From sequence record OK283619.1: 64,000 nt of DNA. One strand, written 5' to 3'. The notes beneath the pieces are model-generated. The model did no database searches and was not told where the DNA came from. It worked only from the letters and a program-made list of their open reading frames with translations. The position numbers and the translations under genes were made by a program. Every line of letters starts with the position of its first letter. Position 1 is the first letter of the stretch. Origin of the DNA: Escherichia phage LPEK22. Shown here piece after piece: positions 1 through 60,934 of this stretch.

Positions 1-10
1 AAATTTAAAA

Positions 11-60
11 TTTATTCAATAAACGGGGTTTACTTCTTCAATAAACCCCGTATACTTCAT
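11..60 (+). promoter_or_regulatory. hairpin plus early-promoter cassette: -35 GTTTAC (28-33), 17-bp spacer, -10 TATACT (51-56)
   Basis: Inverted repeat CGGGGTTTA/TAAACCCCG overlaps the -35; TTCAATAA motif; 49 nt upstream of ATG at 106. Confidence 0.6.
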
Positions 61-105
61 TCCATAAGCAGCACAACACTGACTCTGAAATGAAGGAACT
101 ACATC

Positions 106-570
106 ATGACAACCGTAAAAATCTCCGTCTGGGCATTCAACAATTTCACCAAATTTGACGCGTTTGTTAAAAACGCTCTGGGCATCACCAACATAGAATC
201 TTTCACTTCTTATGACCGCGAAGATCAGGTCAAAATGCTTCGTCCTGAAATCGACCTTGACGCAATGCTGAACGCCATCAAGAATCACGATGACAACCTG
301 GCTGAATTCGAAAACCTCCGCACCTCTATCTTCAAAAAGAACGGTGGCATTCGTAAGCTGAGCAACAAAACCATCAAATATGTCACCGAAGGGTTCTTTG
401 TGGTGTTCGACTTCATAGAAACCAAGCCGAACGAACTTCGTAAAGATTTAGACGGCAACGTTATCACCCTGAAAATATTTGGCGAAGCCAAAGCCGATAT
501 GATGCGTGACGGCCTATGTGATGAGACATTCACATACGACGAATATTGCGATCAGTGCCAAGATCTGTAA
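106..570 (+). CDS. hypothetical early protein (154 aa)
   Basis: ORF downstream of early promoter at 28-56 and the conserved AAGGAACTACATCATG initiation motif; no recognisable domain. Confidence 0.55.
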   Translation: MTTVKISVWAFNNFTKFDAFVKNALGITNIESFTSYDREDQVKMLRPEIDLDAMLNAIKNHDDNLAEFENLRTSIFKKNGGIRKLSNKTIKYVTEGFFVVFDFIETKPNELRKDLDGNVITLKIFGEAKADMMRDGLCDETFTYDEYCDQCQDL

Positions 571-638
571 TTTGTTCTAAACCATTTGAACGGGTATGTT
601 AAAATCATACCCAACCCCTACAAATAGAGGACTATAAC

Positions 639-7679: not shown

Positions 7680-7709
7680 TCAATAACGATTCGGCGCTTT
7701 ATTATCGGT

Positions 7710-7731
7710 GGCGGGGGTTTCCCCGCCCTTT
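7710..7731 (+). terminator. rho-independent terminator after gene 45
   Basis: GGCGGGGG-TTT-CCCCGCC hairpin followed by CTTT. Confidence 0.6.
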
Positions 7732-7757
7732 GAAACGTTTTATCTAAAGAGGCTGCA

Positions 7758-8747
7758 ATGTCTAACATCACTATCGTCACAGATCAATACGCGTGGGAAA
7801 ACAAATATCGTCCTGACAATCTGGATGAGATCGTCCTCCCTTCAGACGTCCGTGCAAAAATCCATGGCTATGTTACATCAGGCAATGGAAACATCCCCTC
7901 AATGCTGTTCTATTCCCCTCAGCCTGGTACGGGCAAGACTACTTCTGCTCTGGCTGTGTGTAACGAAATCGGTTGTATCAAACCGTTGATGATCAATGCG
8001 TCACTGGATAACAGCATTGATGTCATCCGTGACCGTGTTATTCAATACGCAACTGGCGTCAGTGTTTTCGGTGGCCGCAAAGTCGTTATCCTCGATGAAG
8101 TTGAGCGACTTTCCATGGCGGCGCAGGAATCCCTGAAAGGCATCGTAGAGAAAGTCTCAAAAAACTGCTCCTTCATCCTGACGACTAATGCGAAACAGCG
8201 CGTTAACGAACCTCTGCGTTCCCGCTGTCGTGAAATTGATTTTATCTGGTCTGAAAAGGAAGCAGATGAAGTTAAACTTCAATTCATGCGTCGTTGCGCA
8301 ACTATCCTGACAGAGGAAGGCATTCCGTATGAAGCTGGTGTAATTGCTTCCATTGTGAAATCATATTTCCCAGATAATCGCAAAATTATGGGAACTCTTC
8401 AGGATAATGCCACCACGTTTGGTAAAATCGATGAACGCGCTCTGGCACAGGTTAAAGCAGGGGAATTCCAAGCGTTGGTGGATTTCCTAAAAACCAATGA
8501 TTGGGCTGGGATGAAGCAGTGGGTGACCGACAACCAAAACTACATCACTGAAGATTTTTATTCCCGTTTCTTCCATTTCTGCGTTCCCCAGAACAAGGAA
8601 AAGACTCCTTTGATTCAAAACGAGTCAATCCCTGATCTGGTATGCGTATGTGGTCAGTCTCAGATTGAACATCGTTCCGTCGGCGACGTCTGGTTACACG
8701 GCGTTTACTTCTTGACTAACGTCATGCTCAACATCAAATGGAAGTAA
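7758..8747 (+). CDS. 44: clamp loader large subunit (gp44-like AAA+ ATPase)
   Basis: KYRPDNLDEIVLP, SPQPGTGKTT Walker A, ILDEVER, SRCREIDF (SRC motif), FPDNRKIMG; strong recalled match to T4 gp44. Confidence 0.93.
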   Translation: MSNITIVTDQYAWENKYRPDNLDEIVLPSDVRAKIHGYVTSGNGNIPSMLFYSPQPGTGKTTSALAVCNEIGCIKPLMINASLDNSIDVIRDRVIQYATGVSVFGGRKVVILDEVERLSMAAQESLKGIVEKVSKNCSFILTTNAKQRVNEPLRSRCREIDFIWSEKEADEVKLQFMRRCATILTEEGIPYEAGVIASIVKSYFPDNRKIMGTLQDNATTFGKIDERALAQVKAGEFQALVDFLKTNDWAGMKQWVTDNQNYITEDFYSRFFHFCVPQNKEKTPLIQNESIPDLVCVCGQSQIEHRSVGDVWLHGVYFLTNVMLNIKWK

Positions 8748-9203: not shown

Positions 9204-9668
9204 ATGGCGCGTAATACGCTGGACATCTTAAAACTTTCAGCTGTCAACGATGAGGCCAGCATTGTTGACTGTATGGTTGAAGTTCAATTGAACCAAGACA
9301 AACCAGGGATTTTCCTGGGTATCAAGGAAACGCTGAGTCGGATAGGGGTTAACACTCGTCAAGAGCCTAACACCTTGTATCAAACGTGCCATATTCTGCA
9401 TAAATTTGGCAGATATCACATCGTGCATTTCAAGCATCTTTTCATGCTAGATGGGCACTACAACGGCTTTACGCGTGAAGATGTCCTGCGTATGAATCGG
9501 ATTATACGGCTTCTGGAGCAATGGAATATGGTTAAGATCTTGCATCCGGAACAAATAACCGAAGTGGCTGACATGTCTCGGATCAAAGTTGTAAAACATG
9601 ACCAAGTTTCTGAGTGGAAACTGGTTCCAAAATACACCATTCGCCCAAGTCGGGCAAAAAGCGAATAA
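9204..9668 (+). CDS. regA: RegA translational repressor of early genes
   Basis: KETLSRIGV...LYQTCHILHKFGRYHIVHFK...EWKLVPKYTI closely matches T4 RegA; 154 aa vs 122 aa in T4. Confidence 0.9.
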   Translation: MARNTLDILKLSAVNDEASIVDCMVEVQLNQDKPGIFLGIKETLSRIGVNTRQEPNTLYQTCHILHKFGRYHIVHFKHLFMLDGHYNGFTREDVLRMNRIIRLLEQWNMVKILHPEQITEVADMSRIKVVKHDQVSEWKLVPKYTIRPSRAKSE

Positions 9669-12257: not shown

Positions 12258-12323
12258 GACCTCACTTTAACGACGCGCCCCGATAAGGGCGCTCACTTTG
12301 AACTGAAACAGGAAGACTATACC

Positions 12324-14342
12324 ATGGCAGAATTCAAACCCTTCGCAACGGCAGTTAATAACAACGTGCTGGCGATGTCCGCAACTGGTCTGTTCATGAC
12401 CAATATCGATAAAGATGCTCTTTGGGATCTGTATCTGGCATCTTTCCCTGCTGGTACTAACCCGCTGTACCGCGAACGTACTGAACACGATTGCACCTGC
12501 TGTAAACAATTCATCCGTAACATCGGCGGTGTTGTCACCATCGATTCAGAACTGAACGTAATTTCTATCTGGGACAACATTGATCTGGGTAATGAATATG
12601 ACGTGGTGGCTGCGGCTCTTTCCGCGTATGTCAAACAACACGCAATCGTCGATGTTTATTTTAACGATTCTGCCAAAGTCGGCCTGTCTCACAATCACGA
12701 ATCTGGTGAAGATGGCAAAATCCGTACTTACAATCATTTCCATACCCAATTACTTGGTAGCTATGTTCTGCGTCCGGACGCAATCGCTTCGAAAAAAGGT
12801 GAAATCCGCCAGGCTATTGAATTGTTTGAACGCGGTCTGCGTGAAATTACTCTGGAATCAGCTGAAATCGTTCTGGAACTGATTGACCAGAATTCTCTGT
12901 ATCGCGGCGCAGAACACAAAGCAGCAGTGAAGGGATTTGTTGAAACCAAAAAGGCATATGAACAAGTCCCCGAATCAGCCCGTTCTCTTTGGGCATGGCA
13001 TACTGGATACCGTTCAAACAATCATGTTCCACACGGCATCCGCAACACAGTTATCGGCACTCTGCTGACAGATATCAGCGAAGGCGTGGAACTGGAAAAG
13101 GCTGTTAAATCGTTTGAATCCAAAGTTGCTCCGGCGAACTACAAACGTCCGACAGCGCTGGTTTCAAAATCCATGATCGAAAACGCTCAGAAAGAAGTTA
13201 TTGCTCTGGGTTTGGAAGACTCACTGGCGCGTCGTTATGCGGTTTACGATGATCTGACAATCAACAACGTTCTGTTCGCAGATCTGGCCGCTCAGAAAGC
13301 GATGGATCCGTTTGCACAGCTGGCCGCCGAAGTGAAAACTCCGACCAAATCCCTGGAAAAAGTTGAAGAGATCAGCGTTGATGATTTCCTGAGCAATGTT
13401 CTGCCAAAAGCGCATTCAATGGAAGTGCTTGTAGAGAATTCTCATACTAGCAACCTGATGTCCCTGGTTGCTCCGGCGAACCCAGATGCGCCTAACCTGT
13501 TCAAGTGGAACAACGGTTTCTCCTGGTCTTACAACGGTGAAGTGACCGATTCCATTAAAGAACGTGTAAAGGCTGCTGGTGGTAAAGTTGACGGGTATCT
13601 GCGCGTTTCCTTGGCGTGGCACAACAACGACGACCTCGATCTGCATATGTTCAACAACATGGAGCACGTTTACTTCCGTGATCGCCGCTCTATGACAGGT
13701 GCCCATCTGGATATCGATATGAACGGTATGGATGGTATTGATCCAAACCGCGCTCCGGTGGAAAATATCATCTTTACAGATGAAAGCAAGCTGCGCGATG
13801 GTGAATACCGTTTCGAAATCCACAACTACAATCAACGTGAAAAAATCGACGAAGGGTTTGAAGTCGAAGTAGAATACAAAGGCGCAACGCATCGTTTCAG
13901 CCATCCTGGCCTGAAAGATCAGGGGCGTATCACTGCAGTCATCCTGACTGTTAAAGACAAACAAGTTGTTGGCATTAAGTCCGAACTGGCTAATGTTGAT
14001 AAGTCTAAAGAAGTTTGGGGTATCAAGACCGCGACCTTCCAGAAAGTACAGCTGGTTCTGAATTCACCAAACCATTGGGATGGGGAGCAAACTGGTAACA
14101 AGCATGTGTTCTTCATTCTTGAAGGCTGTGCTAATCCTGAAGGTACTCGTGGTTTCTACAACGAATATCTGAAGCCGGAACTGGATAAACATCGTAAGGT
14201 TTTTGAAATGTTGGGTAGTAAAATGAAAGTCCAGCCGAATGAAAACCAACTGTCCGGTCTGGGATTCTCGACGACGCAACGCAACCACGTGTTCGTCAAA
14301 GTGTCCGGCGCGTTTAACCGTACTGTAAAAGTCATTTTCTAA
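12324..14342 (+). CDS. large hypothetical protein (672 aa)
   Basis: Long ORF with early-promoter-like element and conserved initiation motif upstream; no Walker A; function unknown. Confidence 0.6.
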   Translation: MAEFKPFATAVNNNVLAMSATGLFMTNIDKDALWDLYLASFPAGTNPLYRERTEHDCTCCKQFIRNIGGVVTIDSELNVISIWDNIDLGNEYDVVAAALSAYVKQHAIVDVYFNDSAKVGLSHNHESGEDGKIRTYNHFHTQLLGSYVLRPDAIASKKGEIRQAIELFERGLREITLESAEIVLELIDQNSLYRGAEHKAAVKGFVETKKAYEQVPESARSLWAWHTGYRSNNHVPHGIRNTVIGTLLTDISEGVELEKAVKSFESKVAPANYKRPTALVSKSMIENAQKEVIALGLEDSLARRYAVYDDLTINNVLFADLAAQKAMDPFAQLAAEVKTPTKSLEKVEEISVDDFLSNVLPKAHSMEVLVENSHTSNLMSLVAPANPDAPNLFKWNNGFSWSYNGEVTDSIKERVKAAGGKVDGYLRVSLAWHNNDDLDLHMFNNMEHVYFRDRRSMTGAHLDIDMNGMDGIDPNRAPVENIIFTDESKLRDGEYRFEIHNYNQREKIDEGFEVEVEYKGATHRFSHPGLKDQGRITAVILTVKDKQVVGIKSELANVDKSKEVWGIKTATFQKVQLVLNSPNHWDGEQTGNKHVFFILEGCANPEGTRGFYNEYLKPELDKHRKVFEMLGSKMKVQPNENQLSGLGFSTTQRNHVFVKVSGAFNRTVKVIF

Positions 14343-19602: not shown

Positions 19603-19671
19603 AAATCCCCAATAATTATTGGGGATTTTTACTTTCAAAGGCTTTACTTGAATAAACATTTGCCGTATTAT
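19603..19671 (+). promoter_or_regulatory. terminator hairpin plus early promoter: -35 CTTTAC, 18 bp, -10 TATTAT
   Basis: Hairpin AAATCCCC/GGGGATTT with T-run, then CTTTAC...TATTAT 53 nt upstream of ATG 19725. Confidence 0.55.
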
Positions 19672-19724
19672 TCAATAACTGGCTAACGTGGGGTTGGTCA
19701 GAAATTGAATAGGTTGATTATAAC

Positions 19725-19964
19725 ATGTCAAACAAGAAAGTAGAAACGGCAGTAGAAATAGACCGCAATTGGGGCTTGCTCCGCGCTAAAGGATTCCGCC
19801 GTGTGTACATGACTAAGGAAGTCTATGCTTCGCGCCGAGATGTTATCATTAGCAAGAAAGGAAAAGTATGGGTTGCTGAAGAGGTTGATGCCGAAACGGG
19901 TGTCGTCGGTAAGGTTAAAGCCAAGGCGAATATTCTTTTCGCTCTTCTGAAGCATATCAATTAA
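19725..19964 (+). CDS. hypothetical basic protein (79 aa)
   Basis: ORF downstream of early promoter at 19642-19671. Confidence 0.45.
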   Translation: MSNKKVETAVEIDRNWGLLRAKGFRRVYMTKEVYASRRDVIISKKGKVWVAEEVDAETGVVGKVKAKANILFALLKHIN

Positions 19965-20023
19965 TTCTATAAATTATGGCGGGGTATGATTACCCCGCCG
20001 ATTTGAAATGCAGGAACTATACC

Positions 20024-20479
20024 ATGACCCGTATCAATGTTATTCCCGTTGAATCTCTTTGCGACCAACACCTCCTTGCCGAGTACAAAGAACTTGCGCC
20101 AGTTGTCCTTAACGTGGTGAATGGAAAACGCCGTAATCTCAAGGGCGCTCCAAAGCAGTACAAACTCAACGAAGGTCATGTGCTGTTCTTCCGCGACAAA
20201 CTCATTTATCTGATCGAGCGCTACGATCAGCTTGTTGCCGAACTGATTTCTCGTGGGTATGTTGTCAACTATCCTTCGCTCCGCAATCAGGTGACGTCTG
20301 ACAATCGACAGGAACTCGCGATCTATTTGAACGATTACCAACCGACCCAGGCAGCAGTAGAAGAGAATGCCGAGCGCATTGTCGAACGTCTGAATGGCAT
20401 GGGCAAGATCACGTATAACAGAACACCAGTAGATCCATCCTACATGGTGAACGTTATGAAACAAACATTCCAATTTTGA
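20024..20479 (+). CDS. denV: endonuclease V (pyrimidine dimer DNA glycosylase, DenV)
   Basis: MTRINVIPVESLCDQHLLAEYKELAPV matches T4 DenV N-terminus; start moved to internal ATG with conserved initiation motif. Confidence 0.88.
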   Translation: MTRINVIPVESLCDQHLLAEYKELAPVVLNVVNGKRRNLKGAPKQYKLNEGHVLFFRDKLIYLIERYDQLVAELISRGYVVNYPSLRNQVTSDNRQELAIYLNDYQPTQAAVEENAERIVERLNGMGKITYNRTPVDPSYMVNVMKQTFQF

Positions 20480-35710: not shown

Positions 35711-35765
35711 ATATTCAATAAAAGGGGCAAAAGCCCCTTTACTTCTTCAATAACCCACGTATAAT
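35711..35765 (+). promoter_or_regulatory. terminator hairpin plus early promoter: -35 CTTTAC, 17 bp, -10 TATAAT
   Basis: AAAGGGGC-AAAA-GCCCCTTT hairpin fused to CTTTACttcttcaataacccacgTATAAT. Confidence 0.65.
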
Positions 35766-35813
35766 TCTAAACATAAGCAGTACGACACCAACTTGAAAAG
35801 CAGGAACTACATT

Positions 35814-36089
35814 ATGAAAATCATCCTCGACGCATATATCCGTTACGGCAGCAAATGGTTGATGGCCAAAGTTTACGACGGTGAAGAATTAGTCCACGCC
35901 CAAACCGCCCCTTCTGAACAATTGCGTGAAATTATGAAACGCGATTTTCCTACTGCTGAAATGATTGAACCTGCCAACCAAACCGAAGTTGACAAAGAAT
36001 GGGAACGCGAATGGAGTCCGGCGGCGTTGGCACAATTTGATAAGAATTACAACAATCGCCAAAACGCGTCTCGCCCGTTCCGTCGTTAA
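35814..36089 (+). CDS. hypothetical early protein (92 aa)
   Basis: Start at ATG after conserved AGCAGGAACTACATTATG motif, downstream of early promoter 35737-35765. Confidence 0.5.
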   Translation: MKIILDAYIRYGSKWLMAKVYDGEELVHAQTAPSEQLREIMKRDFPTAEMIEPANQTEVDKEWEREWSPAALAQFDKNYNNRQNASRPFRR

Positions 36090-41868: not shown

Positions 41869-41898
41869 CTTTACTCTTCAATAATCATGCACTATTAT
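41869..41898 (+). promoter_or_regulatory. early promoter: -35 CTTTAC, 18 bp, -10 TATTAT
   Basis: Same CTTTAC-tcTTCAATAA spacer architecture; preceded by terminator at 41805-41829. Confidence 0.55.
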
Positions 41899-41975
41899 AG
41901 TTCACATAGGGCGGTACACAACACCCCGCCGAATGAAAAGTGAAACGACCCAACTACATTATGAGGAATTACATC

Positions 41976-42464
41976 ATGGCTACTACCAAAACTCTGATCA
42001 CCAACGGCACCATCTCTTTTGAACTGAACACCGAAGTTGCAAAAGTTGAAATGTTCCGCATCGCTCAGGCAGCTGGCTTCACTGGTGGCAAAACTTCCTT
42101 CATGAATCTGCTGAACGGCAAAGTGAAAGCGACCAACGGCTTCACCCTGGTAGAGCAGGTTGTCGTAGACAAAGCCGTGGTTGCCAAAACTGCTGACAAG
42201 GTTGGCATGCTGAAAGACCTGGGCCATGACATCCACGTTGTCGAAGCGAACACCGAAACTTACGGCACCATCGTAGTCGGCAAAGGCCGCATTCAGCTGA
42301 ACCCGCTGAACAACGGAACCTTCTCCGTGATGGTATTCCCGAAAAAGGGTTATGACAACAGTGATATCGTGAAAGCGGCTGGTGGCGAAGCAAAAGCTCA
42401 GTACGTCAAAATGGGTAAACTGACCGCCAAAGACGTTCAGACCCTGGTAAGCAAACTGGCTTAA
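41976..42464 (+). CDS. hypothetical early protein (162 aa)
   Basis: Start at ATG after conserved initiation motif, downstream of early promoter 41869-41898; Ala/Val/Gly/Lys-rich. Confidence 0.55.
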   Translation: MATTKTLITNGTISFELNTEVAKVEMFRIAQAAGFTGGKTSFMNLLNGKVKATNGFTLVEQVVVDKAVVAKTADKVGMLKDLGHDIHVVEANTETYGTIVVGKGRIQLNPLNNGTFSVMVFPKKGYDNSDIVKAAGGEAKAQYVKMGKLTAKDVQTLVSKLA

Positions 42465-48612: not shown

Positions 48613-48660
48613 AAGCCCCTCAATGAGGGGCTTTACTTTTGAAACCTTTCCGCCTATACT
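48613..48660 (+). promoter_or_regulatory. terminator hairpin plus early promoter: -35 CTTTAC, 18 bp, -10 TATACT
   Basis: Hairpin AAGCCCCTC/GAGGGGCTT whose 3-prime arm runs into the CTTTAC -35. Confidence 0.6.
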
Positions 48661-48711
48661 TCCCAGTAATTTATTGGCAAACGCCACAAATTGAATAGCA
48701 GGAACTATATC

Positions 48712-48945
48712 ATGACCAACTCTGAAATATATCATGCTTCTATGCATTATCACGACCTACGCGCCCGTCCAGGACACGCAAAACAAAAAGCATTCTGGGT
48801 GGCAGAACTCAGATTACGCCGTGCTGTCGTTAACCACCAAATAATCATGAATCGGAAAAACGACAAATCACCGTTGTTGGCAGATTCTTATCTTGAACTC
48901 CGCACAGCCTATGAACAAGCCAAACAGCACGTAATAGGAGCATAA
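48712..48945 (+). CDS. hypothetical early protein (77 aa)
   Basis: Start at ATG after conserved AGCAGGAACTATATCATG motif, downstream of early promoter 48631-48660. Confidence 0.45.
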   Translation: MTNSEIYHASMHYHDLRARPGHAKQKAFWVAELRLRRAVVNHQIIMNRKNDKSPLLADSYLELRTAYEQAKQHVIGA

Positions 48946-59878: not shown

Positions 59879-59907
59879 GTTTACATCTTCTAAAAAGGCA
59901 GTATATT
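59879..59907 (+). promoter_or_regulatory. early promoter: -35 GTTTAC, 17 bp, -10 TATATT
   Basis: Preceded by TTCAATAAAAAGTGG; 67 nt upstream of ATG 59975. Confidence 0.5.
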
Positions 59908-59974
59908 AATGTTCCAGACGCACAGTTGAACATTAGACTGCCAAAGAAGGTTACTACACAAAAGGGTTTTTATT

Positions 59975-60934
59975 ATGTCCTATATTCTTCATATCGAGTC
60001 CGGCCTGAAATTTGAAATTGATGGTAAAACCGCTGCTGATCTTCAAGCAGAAATCAAAGGTGCAGACCTTATCATCGGCAACGTCACGTTACGCCGTATG
60101 ATGGAAGGCGTCCTCCAGTCAGCCAATGGCTTTGAACTCATCGAAGGTCTGAGCCAGGAAGAGAAAGAAGAGACTCTCGAAGCTCTTGACCGCGCTGAAG
60201 CCGAAAAAGTTAAACCGACCGAAGATGCGGGGGTTAAACAGGGCGACGGTGAATCAAATCCGGTGATTGACGCCGAAGAAACGGTTGGGCAACCTGTCGG
60301 TGATCAAAATTCCCAGACCGTCGAAGACGGTTCTCTTGAAGTCAACAAAGACGGTTCCATTTCCCTGGTAGTTGAAGGCGAAGAAGTTCTTGACGAAGAA
60401 GCGCAAGCCCGTGCTGAAGAAGTTCGCCGTCGTATGCTGGGCACAACCGTTGCTGAAGCAATCGCCGACGTTGAAAATCCGAAGGATGATCAGGCTTTAG
60501 CGAACGCGAAGGCGGTTCTGGCCAAGAAATCTTCTGAAATGCGCCCTGCATCTTCTACCGAAGAACGCAAGCGTCGTCATAACAAGCGTGAAGAAATGGT
60601 TGAAGCGGCTCGCGCATCCAATTATGGTCCTATCCTGGCTGCGGTTGAATCAGGGGTTGTGCCTGGGGTTTATTTGAGCTATGTGAATCCGGATATGCGC
60701 TGGTTCCAGTTCCCTGTTACCGAACTGGCAGATGAAGCCAATCCACACGCCCGCACCAATACTTATGTTGATCTGGCGCCAATCGTTTCCGGCGGCTGGG
60801 GGTTCAGTCTGTATGTGAATGGTAAATCATTCACCAAACGCCAGAAAATCAAAGAAACCGATGCCGAATCTCTGGTGAAAGCAATCAATGAATGGTTGCC
60901 TCAGGCGTTGGCCGAAGCGAAAGCTGCTGCGTAA
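59975..60934 (+). CDS. hypothetical acidic protein (319 aa)
   Basis: Downstream of early promoter 59879-59907; acidic N-terminal half. Confidence 0.5.
   Translation: MSYILHIESGLKFEIDGKTAADLQAEIKGADLIIGNVTLRRMMEGVLQSANGFELIEGLSQEEKEETLEALDRAEAEKVKPTEDAGVKQGDGESNPVIDAEETVGQPVGDQNSQTVEDGSLEVNKDGSISLVVEGEEVLDEEAQARAEEVRRRMLGTTVAEAIADVENPKDDQALANAKAVLAKKSSEMRPASSTEERKRRHNKREEMVEAARASNYGPILAAVESGVVPGVYLSYVNPDMRWFQFPVTELADEANPHARTNTYVDLAPIVSGGWGFSLYVNGKSFTKRQKIKETDAESLVKAINEWLPQALAEAKAAA

Follow-up and report, generated by a model that had tools for sequence, protein, structure and literature searches.

A conserved start-codon motif of Escherichia phage LPEK22 forms the 3' end of a putative PeSL-type early expression cassette reused in Ackermannviridae

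We analysed a stretch of 64,000 nucleotides (nt) from Escherichia phage LPEK22 (OK283619.1; hereafter the window, numbered from its first letter) for a sequence motif that ends at the start codons of several of its genes. Over its first 6 kb the window shares 99% identity with many ViI-like phages of Salmonella and Escherichia, and the phage is a Kuttervirus of the Ackermannviridae (ViI-like). As annotated reference we used Salmonella phage BSP101 (NC_049382; Ackermannviridae, Kuttervirus), whose sequence from position 84046 onwards is collinear with the window. The motif usually forms the 3' end of a cassette of about 105 nt that comprises an AT-rich tract, a GC hairpin, a promoter, a leader and the translation-initiation region (TIR) with its Shine-Dalgarno sequence (SD). 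The cassettes and motif copies of the window are listed below, with identities to Dickeya phage LIMEstone1, which belongs to another subfamily; all promoters are predicted.

1-22, + strand: AT-rich, UP-like tract of cassette 1, AAATTTAAAATTTATTCAATAA, read directly from the sequence
23-56, + strand: inverted repeat ACGGGG/CCCCGT (arms 23-28 and 46-51) enclosing the -35 element
29-56, + strand: T4-early-type promoter of cassette 1, TTTACT-N16-TATACT, identical in LIMEstone1, where it is called a 'putative early promoter'
57-84, + strand: leader of cassette 1, G-poor and CA-rich, TCATTCCATAAGCAGCACAACACTGACT; positions -60 to -25 are 100% identical to LIMEstone1
85-108, + strand: TIR motif copy 1, CTGAAATGAAGGAACTACATC-ATG, ending at the annotated start of a gene of 154 amino acids (106)
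12275-12326, + strand: GC hairpin (12275-12292), then a gapped variant of the TIR, TTTGAACTGAAACAGGAAGACTATACC-ATG
19643-19727, + strand: early-type promoter (19643-19671), leader and SD-diverged TIR, ATTGAATAGGTTGATTATAAC-ATG, of a gene of 79 amino acids upstream of denV
19978-20026, + strand: GC hairpin (19978-19999), then TIR copy 2, TTGAAATGCAGGAACTATACC-ATG (denV), without a promoter of its own
35717-35816, + strand: cassette 3, with hairpin AGGGGCAAAAGCCCCT, promoter TTTACT-N16-TATAAT (35738-35765) and leader
35793-35816, + strand: TIR of cassette 3, TTGAAAAGCAGGAACTACATT-ATG
41870-41978, + strand: cassette 4, with promoter TTTACT-N17-TATTAT (41870-41898) and a leader with a weak hairpin
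41940-41978, + strand: tandem TIR of cassette 4, its first SD lost; positions -25 to +3 are 100% identical in LIMEstone1
48614-48714, + strand: cassette 5, with hairpin AGCCCCTCAATGAGGGGCT overlapping the -35 element, promoter TTTACT-N17-TATACT (48632-48660) and leader
48691-48714, + strand: TIR of cassette 5, TTGAATAGCAGGAACTATATC-ATG

The first copy (window 83-108) has the sequence CTCTGAAATGAAGGAACTACATCATG, its last bases being the ATG of an annotated coding sequence. An earlier note on this DNA, made from the sequence alone, had listed six near-identical sites of this kind, at the starts of genes 106, 12324, 20024, 35814, 41976 and 48712. Searching the whole window for GCAGGAACTAYATYATG with at most two mismatches gave four matches (92, 20010, 35800 and 48698), every one on the + strand and every one ending at an annotated ATG. 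The chance expectation was 0.02, and none of 100 shuffles reached four matches. A scan with a position weight matrix likewise found four strong sites in the window, at 37-38 bits with everything else at or below 18 bits, and the full BSP101 genome yielded one additional strong site, at gp061. The strong sites stand far above background and those of the window lie at ATGs, confirming a shared initiation element whose register to the start codon is fixed. Near-identity was thereby borne out for four of the listed six (106, 20024, 35814 and 48712), while the other two, together with a site at 19725, are degenerate copies. The 12324 copy is a gapped variant of the motif (TTTGAACTGAAACAGGAAGACTATACCATG), and the 41976 copy is a tandem of the 15-nt unit from SD to ATG in which the first SD is lost (GTGAAACGACCCAACTACATTATG-AGGAATTACATCATG), in agreement with the partial duplication noted there before. 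The seventh copy, before 19725, is diverged in its SD (ATTGAATAGGTTGATTATAACATG). In the tandem (41940-41978) the mutated first SD reads CCCAA instead of AGGAA, identically in LIMEstone1, and a comparable tandem fossil is present outside the window, at BSP101 152118-152153 (ATTGAAAAGTTTCACTACATCATGAGAGGCAAAAATG). The genes that carry the motif encode small proteins, plus DenV, and sit in early-type transcription units, as the note had proposed.

The motif does not appear to be translated. Open reading frames (ORFs) listed for the window share a peptide M-K/N-S-R-N-Y-I-M over it, which the earlier note had called an artefact of an upstream in-frame ATG. The peptides are indeed artefactual, but their source is the in-frame TTG or GTG of TTGAAA/GTGAAA and not an ATG: ORFs 35793 and 48691 begin with TTG, and ORF 41940 with GTG. 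We rejected a coding role since the shared peptide arises only from TTG/GTG starts without an SD and RefSeq annotates the downstream ATG. In copy 106 the upstream frame holds a TGA (CTG AAA TGA), demonstrating that the motif is non-coding there.

The conserved sequence extends well past the SD. Over 219 genes of BSP101 the generic start signal carries information only at -12 to -8 (G-rich) and at -3/-2 (A/T); on top of it the motif fixes YTGAA, a G, CT and the spacer, indicating that it is much more than the generic ribosome-binding site (RBS) of the phage and upholding the earlier claim of conservation beyond the SD core. The SD itself, AGGA or AAGGA, stands 8 nt before the ATG (7 nt in some Serratia copies) and coincides with the genome-wide G-rich signal, at -11 to -8 in BSP101. 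Inspected by eye, only AGGA/AAGGA pairs with the 3' end of E. coli 16S rRNA, so that extended pairing leaves the extra conservation unexplained and was discarded. The consensus sequences of CsrA, Hfq and RNase E gave no convincing match, each leader having only a single GGA, and no family reached the gathering threshold when the whole window was scanned against Rfam. TTGAAM as a general intergenic signal was dropped as well, being only mildly enriched (49 occurrences against 31 expected) and found in mixed contexts. Separately, we observed that GC hairpins often have TTTGAA(A/C) 0-4 nt behind them (window 7700-7760 and elsewhere: BSP101 91774, 96342 and 39028), for instance before gp44, suggesting that the 5' block of the motif may overlap the tail of weak terminators or attenuators.

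Beyond the window, the motif was found in Kuttervirus, Limestonevirus, Taipeivirus and Miltonvirus. The 105 nt before ORF133 of LIMEstone1 correspond almost base for base to window 1-105, and the motif sits at orthologous places in LIMEstone1, Klebsiella phage Menlow and Serratia phage 2050H1. LIMEstone1 annotates the same sites as 'putative early promoters', and the LIMEstone paper speaks of 'five putative early promoters' (PMC3296691). Serratia phage 2050H1 carries about ten copies, some of them directly after a stop codon without promoter or hairpin, and shows a genus-specific flavour of the motif, ACGAAGG. Nineteen sites from three genera, chosen with a pattern requiring TGAA and GGAA, gave the consensus YTGAA-A-N-G-M-AGGAACT-(A/T)(C/T)A..-ATG, in which the distance from TGAA to the SD is fixed at 5 nt and the spacer between GGAA and ATG measures 6-7 nt; G at -3, A at -1 and CT after GGAA were not demanded by the pattern.

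Comparison of ten orthologous pairs revealed 79-100% identity from -25 to +3, 34-100% in the leader from -60 to -25 and 14-95% in the neighbouring coding sequences. For the three Kuttervirus-Miltonvirus pairs the corresponding values are 82-86% from -25 to +3, compared with 54-69% in the rest of the leader and 58-73% in coding sequence. A scan of IMG/VR with the 19-nt core gave 64 matches, 37 in Ackermannviridae-like loci and 27 in unrelated contigs, the latter mostly inside one conserved coding sequence. A start codon follows the core within 7 nt in all 37 Ackermannviridae-like matches and in 2 of the 27 others, indicating that the motif as an initiation element is specific to the family and consistently used in it. 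A promoter-like TTTAC-N17-19-TANNNT lies within 75 nt in 26 of 34 distinct IMG/VR motif contexts. When IMG/VR was scanned with the promoter 16-mer TTTACTTCTTCAATAA instead, the matches listed were mostly unrelated AT-rich sequence; the TIR pattern followed downstream in 7 of the first 80 loci listed, 6 of which are Ackermannviridae cassettes.

The start regions with the motif are predicted to be accessible. Seven of nine motif starts fall in the lowest 3-13% of the 219 genes by predicted opening energy of -15 to +12, the 12324 and denV starts ranking at 38% and 49%; the median is 4.5 kcal/mol for motif starts versus 7.8 kcal/mol (Mann-Whitney p=1.2e-4). Of 200 shuffled versions each, 199 folded more stably than the leader of copy 106 (taken from position 63 through the TIR into the first ~35 nt of the gene), and 185 more stably than that of copy 35814. 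In leaders of the other type, a 5' hairpin precedes an initiation region that stays open. The motif's 3' half, GAAGGAA(A/C)...ATC ATG, recurs at the most abundant late genes, namely scaffold (GAAGGAAACTATC-ATG) and major head (TAAGGAACGAGCATC-ATG), the sheath gene having GAAGGAATGATATT-ATG, and because it is shared with capsid and scaffold genes we read it as the optimal, standard strong ribosome-binding context of the phage. Low opening energies, weakly folding leaders and the recurrence at scaffold and major-head genes all fit enhanced ribosome loading, one of the two options that the earlier note had raised.

The leader of T7 gene 10 is a strong phage ribosome-binding leader, and the T7 epsilon sequence is complementary to rRNA; Liebig and Rüger reportedly described in 1989 a shared RBS consensus of T4 early genes. 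The motif resembles these systems in its GAAGGA-type SD, its A/T/C-rich, G-poor spacer of 7-8 nt, its unstructured upstream region and its reuse on highly expressed genes. It differs from them in that there is no sequence homology, the epsilon sequence is absent and the YTGAA block has no described counterpart.

Upstream of the initiation region, a promoter-like TTTAC-N17-19-TANNNT lies 48-53 nt before five motif starts (77 nt for the tandem copy), the promoter of cassette 3 having the best promoter-like score in its region. Cassettes 1 and 3 share 80% identity over 56 nt, and the tract AAATTTAAAATTTATTCAATAA also lies upstream of the orthologous cassettes in the Dickeya, Klebsiella and Serratia phages. 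At denV (20024) the motif copy lacks its own promoter and stands directly behind a GC hairpin that is annotated as a terminator in LIMEstone1, an arrangement conserved in IMG/VR relatives. No canonical promoter was found for the 12324 copy, which likewise comes after a GC hairpin and has only a degenerate promoter-like sequence upstream.

Three further features were observed around these elements. First, the word (T)TCAATAA is found in the UP-like tract and again in the spacer between -35 and -10 (17-22 and 39-44, 35751-35756, and other cassettes; …TTATTCAATAA…TTCTTCAATAA…), and as a spacer sequence it is unusually conserved. Second, within 59880-59977 an early-type promoter, TTTACA-N16-TATATT, lies 67 nt upstream of a gene of 319 amino acids (59975) whose start is without the motif, showing that some early-type promoters are not accompanied by the standard initiation module. 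Third, TATAAAT at 19968-19974, immediately 5' of the hairpin before the denV motif, resembles the core of a T4 late promoter; a transcript starting there would begin with the denV hairpin.

The architecture recalls that of the promoter-early stem-loop cassettes of T4-like phages, named PeSLs (Arbiol et al. 2010, PMC2839356; Comeau, Arbiol & Krisch 2014, PMC4122927), which consist of an AT-rich tract, a stem-loop, a sigma-70-like early promoter, and an SD and start codon at the 3' end, with the promoter consensus TTTACW-N17-TAYWAT in T4/PST (PMC4122927). The cassettes share each of these parts. AT-rich sequence is present at 1-22 and, in similar form, before the 41976 and BSP101 38442 cassettes. 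Stem-loops at 35717-35743 and ~48614-48632 abut TTTACT, and the repeat 23-28/46-51 surrounds the -35 element, while the 41976 cassette has no stem-loop upstream of its promoter. Predicted promoters of the form TTTACT-N16-17-TATAMT correspond to the T4/PST consensus by sequence (29-56, 35738-35765, 41870-41898, 48632-48660 and 19643-19671), and the motif supplies the SD and an annotated ATG at the extremity. Multiple copies per genome and degraded, slipped copies are further common traits.

Recombination between PeSL copies yields mini-circles or deletions. PeSLs are also borders at which unrelated genes are exchanged, and such exchange was seen here. Non-homologous genes follow three cassettes in Kuttervirus and Limestonevirus: the genes at window 106-620, 35814-36089 and 48712-48945 have no detectable homology to LIMEstone1 ORF133, ORF084 and ORF064, respectively, yet their cassettes are 86-100% identical from -25 to +3 and 73-100% in the remaining part. 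At the first of these swaps homology returns at the last ~10 nt of the coding sequence, followed by TAA and ACC-TTTGAAC with a terminator hairpin (window 571-620), and at least five different first genes stand behind a single cassette type in IMG/VR. Such swapping of unrelated genes at cassette borders is the hallmark of PeSL-type modular shuffling. The two systems differ in that PeSLs belong to Straboviridae and the cassettes described here to Ackermannviridae, with few copies (~5-10 per genome); in that leader and initiation region are strongly conserved here (16-19-nt consensus, fixed spacing) and not just 'an SD'; and in that the Ackermannviridae initiation module also occurs alone, without a promoter. 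Judged by its sequence, the cassette is a PeSL-type early expression cassette in Ackermannviridae with an unusually conserved, separately used initiation module.

We therefore regard it as probable that the motif serves as the translation-initiation module in a standard cassette for early genes, one that ViI-like phages (Ackermannviridae) reuse. The full cassette of ~105 nt is composed of an AT-rich tract, a GC hairpin, a predicted GTTTAC-N17-TATAMT sigma-70 promoter, a leader of 40-50 nt, either G-poor and unstructured or with a 5' hairpin, and YTGAA-A-N-G-M-AGGAACT-WYAYC-ATG; within operons the initiation module also stands by itself, directly behind a hairpin (denV) or a stop codon (Serratia phage genes 022 and 023). 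It would place an SD of 4-5 nt (AGGA/AAGGA) at 8 nt from the AUG, surrounded by purine/A-rich sequence that is poor in G and essentially unpaired, and this accessibility would favour efficient ribosome loading on the first mRNAs after infection. The sequence may be held constant by purifying selection and, in addition, as a homologous border for gene exchange between phages (PeSL-type shuffling). The earlier interpretation is thus partly supported, the PeSL-type cassette and the conservation throughout Ackermannviridae having been missed.

Several points weigh against this explanation. About 16 specific bases are fixed across genera (YTGAA at 5 nt from the SD, G at -3, CT after AGGAA), and as only AGGA/AAGGA can pair with 16S rRNA, efficient initiation alone fails to explain them. 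The highly expressed late genes compared lack the 5' block YTGAA at this spacing, so that a portion of the motif is specific to one class and a factor other than the ribosome may read it. The invariance at TGAA and GGAA among the 19 sites is partly circular. Finally, the literature searched contained no expression, transcriptome, transcription-start-site or translation data for any Ackermannviridae phage, so that the early timing and high translation efficiency of the motif genes are what we infer. It is possible, if doubtful, that the invariant non-SD bases are the site of a trans-acting phage factor, either RegA with a specificity other than that in T4 or a nuclease or activator of early mRNAs.

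RegA was the second option of the earlier note: the motif would be the operator of this repressor, which would shut off translation of early mRNAs once it has accumulated, and the motif genes would form an immediate-early regulon. The phage does encode RegA (window 9204-9668), with 45% identity to T4 RegA and with the RNA-binding residues T18, R21 and W81 conserved. RegA is present in every motif-bearing genus (89% identity in the Dickeya and Klebsiella phages, 57% in the Serratia phage) and also in the distant Vibrio members D506 and BX-1, and the homologue lies next to the clamp-loader genes as in T4. Known RegA sites overlap initiation regions and are unstructured (PMC3014915), and so does the motif lie in the initiation region of early mRNAs, from SD to AUG, in sequence predicted to be unstructured. 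Its conserved bases exceed what pairing with the ribosome needs, and the T4 targets 44 and 45 have a motif-like TTGAA directly 5' of GA(A)GGAA. T4 gene 56, which presumably is RegA-sensitive as well, also has TTGAA. However, TTGAA precedes the SD in 3 of 88 T4 genes (44, 45 and 56), which is near the chance value of ~1.9.

The nature of the sites argues against a RegA operator as well. In T4 and RB69 these are A+U-rich tracts between SD and AUG that contain a poly(A) stretch or repeated UAA (AAAAUUAUG, AAUAAUAAUAA) (PMC3014915), examples being rIIB AAAAUUAUGUAC, gene 44 AAAUUAUGAUU, the SELEX sequence aaAAUUGUUAUGUAA and RB69 AAUAAUAAUAA (PMC3014915); they are loosely defined and unstructured, with 'no clear sequence conservation' (PMC3014915, Uzan & Miller 2010). 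The motif, in contrast, is sharply defined, with the conserved core UGAAANGMAGGAACU and neither A tract nor UAA repeats. It is best conserved 5' of and within the SD, whereas in the Serratia phage conservation is lowest in the spacer ACUAYAUC, and the 3' half of the motif is common to late structural genes. Moreover, the motif is absent at the orthologues of the T4 targets 44, 45, 62, regA, rIIA, rIIB and dexA, that is, at replication and rII genes under RegA control in T4, the initiation region of the rIIA orthologue showing only a loose resemblance. K14 and F106 of T4 RegA are replaced in the window protein, so that its specificity cannot be predicted. A RegA operator is thus unsupported, and we consider it rather unlikely.

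Two observations concern the RegA sequences themselves. The RegA coding sequence 9204-9668 is annotated 23 residues longer at the N-terminus than T4 RegA, Met1 of which aligns with Met24 (~9273), suggesting that the true start may be internal. In OR844942.1, 'Enterococcus phage Efm 3-10' (111 kb), RegA is 100% identical to that of the window, and the record looks like a mislabelled or contaminated Kuttervirus sequence.

We judge it improbable that the conserved bases outside the SD are functionless and that the cassettes are mere copies, homogenised and spread by recombination between cassettes or co-infecting phages. Some observations point to copying: the leader of LIMEstone1 ORF084 is a mosaic of segments of window cassettes 1 and 3, motif flavours such as ACGAAGG in the Serratia phage are genus-specific, a tandem-duplication fossil lies at 41940-41978, and genes are swapped at the cassette borders. 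Yet the motif is kept where there is no promoter cassette, after stop codons in the Serratia phage and after the hairpin at denV. Site-specific variants are preserved and not homogenised in orthologues of three genera; those at 12324 (in Limestonevirus and Miltonvirus) and 41976 are kept at the orthologous genes of other genera, indicating that gene conversion is not the whole story. Between Kuttervirus and Miltonvirus, furthermore, -25 to +3 is better conserved than the rest of the cassette (82-86% versus 54-69%).

There is little likelihood, in our estimate, that the motif marks early mRNAs for another factor, be it a RegB-like endoribonuclease of phage or host, a translational activator or a small RNA. 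RegB alone recognises GGA, its strong sites having an 11-nt consensus (PMC3014915), and T4 inactivates early mRNAs by this logic. As with the T4 RegB sites (GG*AGRAYARAA), extended invariant bases surround the GGA core at the SD of early mRNAs; the motif is confined to early-type units and its 5' block is missing from late genes at that spacing. The core, however, is GGAAC, thus GGAA and not GGAG, with no fit to GGAGRAYARAA, and tblastn with T4 RegB detected no homologue in BSP101, LIMEstone1, 2050H1 or the window (all E>0.7). Likewise, no candidate factor was found, and no Rfam family in the window.

Action of the motif on DNA, as a promoter element or as an operator for shut-off of early promoters, is very improbable: TTGAAA resembles a -35 hexamer, a pattern scan gives TTGAAA-17-GAAAAT at 35793 and the motif lies at about +25 to +45 relative to the early promoters, but its register follows the ATG and not the promoter (the distance from -10 to ATG varies from 48 to 77 nt), it also occurs without any promoter, it is found on the coding strand in every case and is no palindrome, and a sigma-70 promoter inside it was rejected as the -10 candidates 9 nt downstream (TACATC, TATACC) are wrongly spaced and lack the critical final T.

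The preferred reading, an initiation module within a reused early-gene cassette, concerns a group of phages whose early regulation is poorly understood, the Ackermannviridae (ViI-like: CBA120, Det7, LIMEstone) being widely used for biocontrol. In the literature searched we found no description of this initiation consensus or of PeSLs in ViI-like phages. Papers on these phages give only sigma-70-type promoter predictions (PMC3184105, PMC3121705), and for CBA120 early promoters could not be identified by informatics (PMC3184105). Recognising the cassette maps the likely immediate-early transcription units and their first genes, and it corrects start-codon calls, upstream in-frame TTG/GTG starts being artefacts. 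It also extends the PeSL model of cassette-bounded gene exchange past the T4-like Straboviridae and provides a small, portable expression module with which these phages could be engineered. The early-specific 5' block provides a defined target for asking whether RegA or another factor controls early translation; if a trans-acting factor does read the non-SD bases, the motif would define a family-wide immediate-early translational regulon in Ackermannviridae.

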